Source: Escherichia coli
Lineage (GTDB): Bacteria; Pseudomonadota; Gammaproteobacteria; Enterobacterales; Enterobacteriaceae
DNA: 64,000 nt
Assembly: GCF_003334405.1 (NCBI RefSeq)
Contig: NZ_QOWM01000017.1
Direction: 5' to 3' (one strand)
Shown: positions 56,264-62,547 of the stretch, piece by piece
Numbering within the stretch: the stretch's first letter is position 1
How the letters are laid out: each line of letters starts with the position of its first letter
Translations under genes and position numbers: made by a program
The notes under the pieces: model-generated
Database searches by the model: none
Told to the model about the DNA's origin: nothing
Seen by the model: only the letters and a program-made list of their open reading frames with translations

Positions 56264-57225
56264 ATAATCCCGGCCTGATAGAAATCCTGCAGGTTTATTG
56301 CGCCGGTGAGTTTGCCGTTTTCATCCACCACCGGTGCGGCAGTGATTTTGCGCTTCATCAGGATCTCTTTGGCGTCGATGGCGCGACTTTGCGATTGCAA
56401 CGTGGTGCCGCCGACCGTCATCGCTTCATTGACTGGCGTGGTGAGTGCGCCGCCGCCAACCAGCCAGCGACGTAAATCGCCGTCGGTAAAGACGCCTTGT
56501 ACCTGTTGTTGAGCGTCACATACCGCCACCAGCCCCAGACCGGTGCGGCTGAGTTCCAGCATCGCATCCATCACGCTGGCGGTTAACGCCACCTGTGGGA
56601 TGGCATCGTCACGGCGCATCAGATGATGCACTTTATTCAGCAAGCGAGCGCCCAGTGCCCCGGCTGGGTGGGAGCGGGCAAAATCTTCTTCATTAAATCC
56701 GCGCGCCTGCATGACCGCCATCGCCAGCGCGTCACCCATCATCAGGGTATTGACGGTGCTGGAGGTCGGCGCAAGGTGCATCGGGCAGGCTTCGCGTTCT
56801 ACGGAGATATCCAGCACCGCTTTTGCCGCCAGGCCCAGCGGTGACGTCGGTTTGCCGGTCATCGCCAGCAGCGCGATAGATTTATCTTCCAGACGCGGAA
56901 TAATCAGATCCAGTTCCTTCGCGCCACCGGAGTAAGAGATAAACAGCATCACATCGCGGCTTTCGATCATCCCCAGATCGCCGTGCAGCGCTTCTGCCGG
57001 ATGGACAAAAAAAGCCGGAGTGCCGGTACTGGCAAGCGTTGCGGCGATTTTCTTACCAATGTGGCCCGATTTGCCAATTCCCGAAACCACCACTTTGCCT
57101 TCACAGTGCAGGATGATATTGGCGGCGCGAACAAAATCATCGCCCAGACGTTCCGGTAAACGGCTTGCTTCCTGCAACTCCAGCATTAACGTCTGACGTC
57201 CCGCGTTCAGTAGTGCTTCACTCAT
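56260..57225 (-). CDS. gutQ: D-arabinose 5-phosphate isomerase (SIS plus CBS domains)
   Basis: 321-aa ORF; synteny. Confidence 0.9.
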
Positions 57226-57991
57226 TGCTCTCTCCGGTTATGATCACATCGATCCCTTTCTCTTCCAGCGCCTGACGAAACGCCGGATCGATACCTGCGT
57301 CGGTAATCAGCTTATCGACGCTTTCAAGACTGCAAACTACGTTGGGGCTTTTACGGCCAAACTTTGATGAGTCCGCCATCAAAATCACTTCGCGCGCGGC
57401 ATTGCACATTGCCTTACTGACGGTATAAACCTCGTTAAAGGTGGTTACGCCCGCATTGAGATCGATGCCGTCGGTGCCCATAAACAATTTATCGAAGGTG
57501 AAATGCTCGAAGGCATTCTCTGCCAGTTGCCCGTGAAATGAGGCCGATTTTTTGCGAAACGTTCCGCCTGGCATCAGGATAGTTTGTTCGTTATCCAGTT
57601 CGGATAGCGCATTGACGATATGCAGGCTGTTGGTCATCACCGTGATGTTATTAAAGCGCGAGAGCAGGGGAACCATCTGCAAAACGGTACTGCCAGCATC
57701 AAGAATGATCGAATCGCCATCATGGATAAAACTAACGGCAGCTTCTGCAATCAGCTCTTTCTTGTGGGTGTTGATGAGTGTTTTATGATCGATAGGCGGA
57801 TCGGATTCCTCTTTATTCAACACCACTCCGCCATAAGTACGAATGACGGTTCCGGCATGTTCCAGAATGACCAGATCTTTGCGAATGGTTGTGCCTGTGG
57901 TGTCAAAGTATTGCGCCAATTCTTCAACCGAGCATTTACCCTGCTTTTGCAGATACTCCAGAATGGCGGCCTGACGCTGACGAGGTTTCAT
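57218..57991 (-). CDS. srlR: DeoR-family glucitol operon repressor
   Basis: 257 aa; N-terminal helix-turn-helix. Confidence 0.95.
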
Positions 57992-58057
57992 GGGCGTGAT
58001 TACCTGATTTAGGTTTCAAAATGATAACTTCGCAAGCAAGTAACATTCACAACGAAA

Positions 58058-58417
58058 TTATCCACGTTTCAGTTTAAGCGCCAATGATAGAGCATTCTGT
58101 GATAGTGGATCATGGGGAAAGATCACATCGGGCTGTAAATCACCCGCATGCATACCGGTAATTGCGGGAATTTTTTGCGGTCGGGCGAAGACGGTCAGTC
58201 CTTTCATAAACAAGGTGTCGACGATGCGCTGCTGATCGTCCAGCGCGATGGCGACCACGACCCGCGGTTTAAAGCGCCCGCTGGAACGGCCCACGCCAAC
58301 CCGCCCTTGCTGGCATAGTGTGTCGAAGGCACGGTTAAAACGAGAAATTTGCCAGCCGCCTAAGGCCAGTTGCGCACACCAGGCGATAACGGCGACGGTG
58401 ATGAGTGCGGATACCAT
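58058..58417 (-). CDS. gutM: Glucitol operon activator GutM
   Basis: 119-aa ORF; synteny. Confidence 0.9.
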   Translation of the reverse strand: MVSALITVAVIAWCAQLALGGWQISRFNRAFDTLCQQGRVGVGRSSGRFKPRVVVAIALDDQQRIVDTLFMKGLTVFARPQKIPAITGMHAGDLQPDVIFPHDPLSQNALSLALKLKRG

Positions 58418-59686: not shown

Positions 59687-61224
<1,538 letters not shown>

Positions 61225-61461
61225 TTATTGTTTTATTACCAAACGGCAACCTAATCTAATCAGATTGAAAGATTTAAAAGTGTTATTTTGATCGCAAAAT
61301 GAAAGATAAATATTTTAATTTGAAAGTTTGAATAAAAGGATAGCGAGGGGAATGAGTTGAGTTATGTAAAGTCCGTATCGGGCAGTGACTACCGCTTCCT
61401 TGTGCGGGGCGTGATGCTTTACCATACTTGCCCCTGGTTGAATCTGTTAAATGGACCCCTC

Positions 61462-62547
61462 ATGTTCAAGCGTCGTTATGTAACATTGCTTCCCCTTTTT
61501 GTGTTGCTTGCCGCCTGTAGCAGCAAGCCAAAACCTACTGAGACTGATACGACCACCGGAACGCCGTCTGGCGGCTTCCTGCTTGAGCCGCAGCACAATG
61601 TGATGCAGATGGGCGGCGATTTCGCTAATAACCCGAATGCCCAGCAGTTCATCGACAAAATGGTGAACAAACACGGTTTCGATCGTCAGCAGTTGCAGGA
61701 AATTCTCTCCCAGGCGAAGCGTCTGGATTCGGTACTGCGGCTGATGGATAACCAGGCACCAACCACATCGGTGAAACCGCCATCAGGTCCGAACGGCGCA
61801 TGGCTCCGTTATCGCAAAAAATTTATTACGCCGGACAACGTGCAGAACGGTGTGGTTTTCTGGAATCAGTATGAAGATGCGTTGAATCGCGCGTGGCAGG
61901 TGTATGGAGTACCGCCGGAAATTATCGTCGGGATTATCGGCGTTGAAACCCGCTGGGGGCGCGTGATGGGGAAAACTCGCATCCTCGATGCGCTGGCAAC
62001 GCTGTCATTTAACTACCCACGCCGCGCGGAGTATTTCTCTGGCGAGCTGGAAACCTTCCTGTTGATGGCGCGCGACGAGCAGGACGATCCGCTCAATCTG
62101 AAAGGTTCCTTTGCCGGGGCGATGGGCTACGGACAGTTTATGCCGTCGTCTTACAAACAATATGCGGTAGATTTCAGCGGCGACGGGCATATCAACCTGT
62201 GGGATCCGGTTGATGCGATCGGTAGCGTGGCGAACTATTTCAAAGCGCACGGCTGGGTGAAAGGCGATCAGGTCGCGGTAATGGCAAACGGTCAGGCTCC
62301 AGGCTTGCCAAATGGCTTCAAAACTAAGTACAGCATTTCGCAGCTTGCCGCCGCAGGTTTAACGCCACAGCAGCCGCTGGGCAACCATCAACAAGCCAGC
62401 CTGCTGCGTCTGGATGTTGGCACCGGCTACCAGTACTGGTACGGTCTGCCGAACTTCTACACCATCACCCGTTACAACCACAGCACCCATTACGCAATGG
62501 CGGTCTGGCAGTTAGGACAAGCCGTGGCGCTGGCGCGAGTACAGTAG
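61462..62547 (+). CDS. mltB: Membrane-bound lytic murein transglycosylase B (lipoprotein)
   Basis: 361 aa from MFKRRYVTLLPLFVLLAACSS (lipobox LAAC). Confidence 0.95.
   Translation: MFKRRYVTLLPLFVLLAACSSKPKPTETDTTTGTPSGGFLLEPQHNVMQMGGDFANNPNAQQFIDKMVNKHGFDRQQLQEILSQAKRLDSVLRLMDNQAPTTSVKPPSGPNGAWLRYRKKFITPDNVQNGVVFWNQYEDALNRAWQVYGVPPEIIVGIIGVETRWGRVMGKTRILDALATLSFNYPRRAEYFSGELETFLLMARDEQDDPLNLKGSFAGAMGYGQFMPSSYKQYAVDFSGDGHINLWDPVDAIGSVANYFKAHGWVKGDQVAVMANGQAPGLPNGFKTKYSISQLAAAGLTPQQPLGNHQQASLLRLDVGTGYQYWYGLPNFYTITRYNHSTHYAMAVWQLGQAVALARVQ

Follow-up and report, generated by a model that had tools for sequence, protein, structure and literature searches.

CTTTCA words upstream of Escherichia coli srlA are probable left halves of three SrlR operators arrayed over a class II CRP-dependent promoter

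We propose that the three TGAAAG words between the divergent genes srlA and mltB of Escherichia coli, which read CTTTCA on the sense strand of srlA, are probably the left halves of three operators for the repressor SrlR, arrayed over a class II CRP-dependent promoter. The proposal draws on features that we observe directly: the sequence, its conservation, its palindromic form, the co-occurrence of the motif with srlR and gutM, and its placement relative to conserved promoter elements. The comparative evidence yields a 15-bp operator model, CTTTCA-N3-TGAAAG, and places three such sites with respect to the CRP-like site and the −10 element; it further yields a possible autoregulatory site 5′ of srlR and grounds to doubt that GutM binds DNA.

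The window (the whole stretch of DNA analysed, 64 kb) carries at its end a minus-strand sorbitol/glucitol locus that begins with srlA and continues with srlE, srlB, srlD, gutM, srlR and gutQ (Table 1). The gene names srlA and mltB, given in the initial annotation from the sequence alone, are correct according to the RefSeq annotation and NCBIfam. The ATG of srlA lies at 61206 on the minus strand, and the 255-bp spacer between srlA and mltB (61207-61461) is identical at 255 of 255 positions to K-12 MG1655 2825577-2825831. The three TGAAAG words reported upstream of srlA are indeed present on the plus strand, with quoted contexts that agree with the sequence, and the first of them is likewise a complete TGAAAG (gatTGAAAGattt); on the srlA sense strand they are three direct copies of CTTTCA, all in one orientation, located 65, 99 and 120 nt 5′ of the ATG with start-to-start spacings of 34 and 21 bp. 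A search of 61000-61700 against Rfam at E<=1 returned no matching RNA family. Elsewhere in the operon, a peak of RpoN-holoenzyme SELEX has been reported between srlB and srlD (PMC8743547), and recurrent adaptive mutation in the mouse gut hits the srl repressor gene (PMC5094792).

On its own, the TGAAAG triple of the E. coli sequence is weak evidence for a non-chance origin. In first-order Markov simulations of the 255-bp spacer, three copies of TGAAAG arise with a probability of about 0.001; the probability that any non-trivial hexamer occurs three times on one strand is 0.28 for the simulated spacer and 0.08 for a simulated 106-bp AT-rich core. As single-sequence statistics are weak once the post-hoc choice of the word is allowed for, the claim that the triple is more than chance rests on its conservation. 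Outside the spacer, the 64-kb window nowhere has three TGAAAG words on one strand within 100 bp. Over the window as a whole the word is over-represented on both strands (58 copies vs. 33±6.6 expected from dinucleotide shuffles); most of these copies lie in coding sequence, and the raw counts therefore overstate the specificity of the word.

A scan of species-representative genomes for SrlA gave 80 loci, from Escherichia, Salmonella, Citrobacter, Enterobacter, Klebsiella, Raoultella, Kosakonia, Phytobacter, Trabulsiella, Buttiauxella, Cedecea and others, and also from Yersinia and Serratia. CTTTCA stands at the identical three offsets in most of the 80 loci, and the opposite orientation never occurs inside the conserved block. 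Anchoring on the CRP-like core produced an ungapped alignment of 125 columns for 77 Enterobacteriaceae srlA promoters, across which the spacings of 21 and 34 bp are invariant. The initial annotation had named a lack of conservation in orthologous srl promoters as the result that would count against the motifs; what we find is TTTC at all three positions in 73 of the 77 promoters and the exact triple of CTTTCA in 48. Site 3 is the distal copy, with CTTTCA in 75 promoters and TTTCA in all 77; site 2 reads CTTTCA in 68; and site 1 reads CTTTC in 69 (CTTTCA in 53 and CTTTCG, its main variant, in 16).

The mean information of the three hexamers in this 77-promoter block is 1.87 bits, compared with 1.86 bits for the CRP half-sites, 1.50 bits for the −10 hexamer, 1.29 bits for the remaining block columns and 0.50 bits for the flanks. 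The hexamers, the CRP-like site and the −10 element are thus the most conserved columns of a block of ~80 bp with unconserved flanks. Two further stretches, TTT (61310-61308) and TGATTA (61262-61257), are invariant in 77/77 promoters, which exceeds the needs of the hexamers plus the −10 element; the regulator or RNA polymerase may make additional contacts there.

Conservation collapses directly 5′ of site 3, and beyond 61331 the promoters are unalignable even within Escherichia. In a comparison of the window with L001-L004, within the genus Escherichia, the 20-30 bp 5′ of the distal hexamer (61331-61360) diverge strongly between strains and the operator/promoter block is identical. Constraint ends abruptly just 5′ of the distal hexamer.

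Six loci without an mltB match in their upstream flank, scored as presence or absence only (L066, L070, L071 and L074-L076; Buttiauxella, Cedecea and three isolates labelled Enterobacter or Enterobacteriaceae), retain the motif block, as do distant taxa that have different upstream neighbours. An element of the mltB promoter was ruled out, as the block travels with srlA when the neighbour changes. In Kluyvera sichuanensis (L063), an ERIC/IRU-like sequence of ~126 bp (…GTGAATCCCCAGGAGCTTACTCTAGTAAGTGACTGGGGTGAGCG…) is inserted at about −190 to −60, between the promoter block and the ribosome-binding site of srlA; the conserved block is intact and displaced to −213, and the leader is lengthened. 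In the two Serratia loci (L079 and L080), sites 2 and 3 and the CRP site are kept and site 1 is absent; Serratia silvae (L080, −148..−109) has an extra CTTTCA 13 bp 5′ of the distal copy.

A CRP-dependent promoter architecture was among the readings offered in the initial annotation, and it stands: a CRP-like site lies between motifs 1 and 2, both of its halves are near-invariant in the 77 promoters (TGnGATC and TAACA), and srlA has been called a class II CRP-activated gene (PMC8916003). We rejected the idea that the hexamers themselves are additional CRP sites, as TTTCA does not constitute half of such a site and the CRP-like sequence sits between two of the words. TAGATT is likely the only plausible −10 element of the srlA promoter, to judge from its columns, of which T, A, A/T and T are conserved in 72-77 of the 77 promoters. 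A simple sigma-70 scan left the srlA promoter uncalled and gave a single match, at 61450-61421, which is at shuffle chance level; the scan misses the srlA −10 element because the promoter has no −35 element, as expected for a class II CRP promoter. With the centre of the CRP-like site placed at −41.5, transcription would begin at 61247, a position that the −10 element allows; as the start is predicted, the positions assigned from it may be off by a few bases.

Table 1. Coordinates of the features discussed. Positions refer to the window unless a locus is named; positions relative to the transcription start are predicted.
Feature	Position	Strand	Remarks
mltB	61462..62547	+	divergent neighbour of srlA
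srlA, PTS glucitol/sorbitol EIIC	60643..61206	-	first gene of regulated operon; RefSeq annotation and NCBIfam
gutM, candidate alternative binder	58058..58417	-	NCBIfam NF007592
srlR (gutR), DeoR-family repressor	57218..57991	-	NCBIfam equivalog NF007753, 454 bits
Site 3 hexamer CTTTCA, distal	61321..61326	-	predicted −79..−74
Site 3 imperfect palindrome CTTTCAaatTAAAAT	61326..61312	-	2 mismatches to CTTTCAnnnTGAAAG; predicted about −79..−65
Site 2 hexamer CTTTCA, middle	61300..61305	-	predicted −58..−53
Site 2 imperfect palindrome CTTTCAtttTGCGAT	61305..61291	-	3 mismatches; predicted about −58..−44
CRP-like site TGCGAtcaaaaTAACA	61281..61296	-	8/10 to TGTGA-N6-TCACA; centre 61288.5
Site 1 hexamer CTTTCA, proximal	61266..61271	-	predicted −24..−19
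Site 1 imperfect 15-bp palindrome CTTTCAatcTGATTA	61271..61257	-	3 mismatches; predicted about −24..−10
Likely −10 TAGATT	61253..61258	-	TAnnAT in 77/77; preceded by invariant TGAT
Predicted start of srlAEBD-gutM-srlR-gutQ transcript	61246..61247	-	from the −10 element and the class II statement
Invariant/near-invariant A.CTTTCA	61328..61321	-	77-promoter block
Invariant/near-invariant CTTTCA	61305..61300	-	77-promoter block
Invariant/near-invariant TGnGATC and TAACA	61296..61290 and 61285..61281	-	77-promoter block
Invariant/near-invariant CTTTC(A/G)	61271..61266	-	77-promoter block
Invariant/near-invariant AT	61254..61253	-	77-promoter block
Weak operator-like TTATCATTTTGAAAC	58013..58027	-	3 mismatches; 22-36 nt 5′ of srlR ATG
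Perfect dyad CTTTCAatgTGAAAG	Vibrio metschnikovii L085 8234-8248		gutM-srlR spacer, −58 of srlR
Perfect dyad CTTTCAttcTGAAAG	Salinivibrio L090 8193-8207		gutM-srlR spacer, −59 of srlR
1-mismatch dyad TTTTCAcaaTGAAAG	Yersinia L086 8592-8606		gutM-srlR spacer, −82 of srlR
Dyad CTTTCAtttTGAAAG	Rahnella		−133 of srlA
Dyad CTTTCAaagTGAAAA	Salinivibrio		−59 of srlA
Dyad GTTTCAtttTGAAAT	Xenorhabdus		
Perfect dyad CTTTCAaagTGAAAG/CTTTCAAAGTGAAAG, then TTTTCAgtTGAAAA	Aeromonas sobria L087 626-660		~400 nt 5′ of annotated srlA

By their predicted positions, the sites would interlock with these promoter elements in two places: site 1, between the CRP-like site and the conserved −10 element, would overlap the extended −10 region and the first −10 bases; and the right half of site 2 would overlap the left half-site of the CRP-like site. 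The latter junction, TTTCA-N3-TG(T/A/C)GATC, is kept in E. coli, Serratia, Yersinia, Rahnella, Xenorhabdus and Pasteurella. The 34-bp distance puts site 1 about a quarter of a helical turn out of phase with sites 2 and 3.

The form of the complete recognition unit emerges from more distant relatives. We examined eight distant gammaproteobacterial loci, 80 kb in total, from Pantoea, Pasteurella, Vibrio, Yersinia, Aeromonas, Xenorhabdus, Rahnella and Salinivibrio, all of which carry srlAEBD-gutM-srlR. In these loci the CTTTCA word occurs in both orientations and as dyads. The perfect palindrome CTTTCAnnnTGAAAG (CTTTCA-N3-TGAAAG, 12/12) is found four times in the 80 kb vs. 0.005 times expected, in Rahnella, Vibrio, Salinivibrio and Aeromonas; all four copies are intergenic, and three of them lie 58-133 nt 5′ of srlA or srlR. 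Palindromes with one mismatch are similarly located: three of four are upstream of srlA or srlR, and the fourth is inside gutM, 234 nt 5′ of srlR. The distance of the Aeromonas dyad from srlA points to a long leader of srlA, to a small upstream ORF or to an annotated start that is wrong. In a set of 10 diverse srlA upstream regions, CTTTCA is the commonest strand-collapsed hexamer (24 copies), ahead of pure A/T words.

The suggestion that the words are half-sites is thereby borne out, CTTTCA being half of a perfect CTTTCA-N3-TGAAAG in four genera; and as perfect dyads exist in distant taxa, the E. coli words can be read as the left halves of imperfect 15-bp operators. The E. coli right halves are poor, matching TGAAAG at 3-4 of 6 positions; three bases after each hexamer, T-R-A or TG-N follows in all 77 species. 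The right half begins with TGA at site 1 in 77/77 species, with TGA (43) or TGC (28) at site 2, and with TAA (54) or TGA (20) at site 3. From sequence comparison, the TGAAAG words are deeply conserved, putative half-sites of a DNA-binding protein, and they flank both the CRP site and the core promoter.

The same unit recurs in front of the repressor gene. Two perfect dyads and one with a single mismatch lie in the gutM-srlR spacers of Vibrio metschnikovii, Salinivibrio and Yersinia (Table 1), and their location just 5′ of srlR suggests an internal, autoregulated srlR promoter. The operator-like sequence at 58013-58027 of E. coli, which taken alone lacks significance, may be an autoregulatory site.

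These properties favour SrlR over GutM as the protein that binds the array. The dyad symmetry of the 15-bp unit fits a dimer of a helix-turn-helix (HTH) protein such as SrlR; site 1, at its predicted place inside the core promoter, has a repressor-type position; and a palindrome directly 5′ of srlR fits autoregulation by a repressor. Genes with HTH_DeoR and DeoRC domains follow gutM in 8/8 distant loci. Loss of srlR derepresses srlA 8-12 fold (PMC5094792), and repressors of the DeoR family are oligomers that act on several sites (PMC10991401). The second-best NCBIfam family of SrlR is AgaR (243 bits), and K-12 promoters bound by AgaR, as taken from PMC4694137, are significantly enriched in CTTTC/GAAAG (6 vs. 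1.1 expected, and 7 vs. 1.8 expected); TTTCA words are present in the gatY promoter as well. A comparison of HTH recognition helices was uninformative in this respect, the helix being too conserved across the DeoR family to tie SrlR to CTTTCA. Points that run counter to SrlR are that two of the three E. coli sites lie 5′ of the CRP site, the usual location of an activator, that Serratia is without site 1, and that the right halves of the E. coli sites are poor. In the searchable full-text literature we found no footprint or binding experiment for SrlR or GutM.

From the arrangement of the sites we infer how repression and its relief might proceed. Without inducer, an SrlR oligomer would bind the three-site array cooperatively. 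At site 1, in the promoter spacer and at the upstream edge of the −10 element, SrlR would exclude RNA polymerase; at site 2, it would compete with cAMP-CRP for the overlapping left half-site; and site 3, two helical turns 5′ of site 2, would form part of the cooperative array. A sorbitol-derived inducer would cause SrlR to leave, whereupon CRP at −41.5 could drive transcription.

The model also bears on the role of GutM, for which two readings have to be weighed. It is possible, although we hold it to be the less probable case, that GutM is no DNA-binding activator at all and is a membrane-anchored anti-repressor or signal transducer, and that all promoter-specific control passes through the three-operator array of SrlR; since some bases belong both to the middle operator and to the CRP site, SrlR would in that case act partly as an anti-activator of CRP. 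If true, the activator/repressor model proposed for the gut operon in 1988 would need revision, as would the database label of GutM.

The other reading, which we consider improbable, is that the hexamers, or at least the two 5′ of the CRP site, are bound by GutM as an activator that helps CRP and RNA polymerase, with SrlR working elsewhere or through GutM. By the account of it in PMC5723342, the genetic work of Yamada & Saier (1988) makes GutM an activator, and the K-12 RefSeq label for the protein is “DNA-binding transcriptional activator”. Sites 2 and 3, at about −55 and −76, have activator-type positions and are the only sites that Serratia retains, and gutM co-occurs with the motif in every taxon examined. 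However, both gutM and srlR are present in every examined taxon, and co-occurrence therefore cannot separate the two proteins. The structure predicted for GutM does not resemble that of a DNA-binding protein of the HTH type: in an AlphaFold model (nine homologues in the alignment, pLDDT 89), a hydrophobic N-terminal helix (residues 2-37) is followed by a three-stranded sheet and a C-terminal helix that make up a small alpha/beta domain, and the best matches of the model in the PDB are IscU-like and weak (TM ~0.5), with no HTH protein among them. A hydrophobic stretch of 20-35 residues forms its N-terminus, and for the corresponding segment of the Firmicutes proteins a transmembrane location is predicted (PMC5723342). 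The gut operons of Firmicutes have GutM and no DeoR-type SrlR; GutM works there alongside a different DNA-binding regulator, to go by the title of a study that PMC5723342 cites (Alcantara et al. 2008). Moreover, the 15-bp palindrome suits a dimeric HTH protein; the CTTTCA word is found at the repressor-type positions in the core promoter and 5′ of srlR; and the AgaR paralogue uses a similar word and has no GutM partner.

Much less probable still are two explanations that involve neither protein. The first holds that the words are half-sites for a regulator of the IclR family, PlaR (YiaJ) or KdgR, or for Cra. The boxes of all three contain TGAAAC/GTTTCA, the PlaR/KdgR box shares the pentamer TGAAA/TTTCA with the srl word, and PlaR (box ATnTGAAACnnnGTTCAnTT) bound a mltB-srlA probe in genomic SELEX and gel shift, a binding that was nevertheless classed as low affinity (PMC6958661). 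The order of the half-sites and their spacing are opposite, however, the conserved palindrome being TTTCA-N3-TGAAA and not TGAAAC-N3-GTTTCA; and the motif tracks srlR and gutM into Vibrio, Pasteurella and Aeromonas and recurs 5′ of srlR. The PlaR/KdgR box was ruled out, as the spacer (61207-61461) contains no match to TGAAAC-N3-GTTTCA at <=3 mismatches. The Cra box, whose consensus we take to require a central C·G, was ruled out by inspection, the central C·G being absent. Weak cross-binding of PlaR to the TGAAA words, as a secondary matter, is plausible.

The second explanation, to which we give as little credence, does without a dedicated factor: the repeats would arise incidentally from an AT-rich, curved promoter of the UP-element type, or from extended CRP flanks, and would be conserved as general promoter sequence. 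A hexamer repeated three times is common (8-28%) in simulated AT-rich spacers, TGAAAG is abundant window-wide, and conservation spans the whole ~80-bp block and extends beyond the hexamers; yet the hexamer columns match the CRP half-sites in conservation and exceed the remaining block. The presence of C/G in the hexamers also sets them apart from UP elements; distant taxa have perfect 15-bp palindromes at other positions and 5′ of srlR, away from any CRP site or srlA promoter; and CTTTCA is the top word shared by 10 divergent promoters.

The reading in which SrlR occupies three operators has to be placed in a well-studied setting. The srl/gut operon, its repressor, its activator and its dependence on CRP have been known since 1987-88. 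As the operon and its regulators are long known, the words are not a new kind of element, and the TGAAAG triple is the ordinary promoter architecture of a classical operon. We found no base-level definition of the srl operator in the accessible literature; RegPrecise or RegulonDB may already record the motif.

The closest parallel is the aga regulon, in which several CTTTC(G/A) words, some in each orientation, stand beside a CRP-like site in the agaR-kbaZ and agaS promoters. The AgaR consensus reportedly given by Ray & Larson in 2004, WRMMTTTCRTTTYRTTTYNYTTKK, contains TTTCR. The aga words are mostly CTTTCG within T-rich runs, as opposed to the CTTTCA-N3-TGAAAG palindrome of srl; no GutM-like partner exists in the aga system, whereas srl has gutM; and the AgaR sites have been footprinted, whereas the srl sites are known here from sequence comparison. 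AgaR itself is a tetramer that represses a PTS sugar operon and regulates its own gene (PMC10991401, PMC4694137).

The proposed srl array also resembles the DeoR and GlpR systems, in which an oligomeric repressor acts on several operators over a promoter, one of them on the core promoter. The deo operators are separated by hundreds of bp and work through DNA looping; in contrast, the srl sites are spaced by 21 and 34 bp within one stretch of ~70 bp, and the recognition sequences differ. The oligomeric states of repressors of the DeoR family are described in PMC10991401. Finally, class II promoters controlled by CytR and CRP share with the predicted layout of the srl promoter a CRP site near −41.5, the lack of a −35 element and a site for the specific regulator that abuts the CRP site; but CytR needs CRP as a partner (anti-activation), whereas for srl a simple competition between SrlR and CRP is the more economical reading. 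Set beside these systems, the srl operator model is a refinement of a known one.
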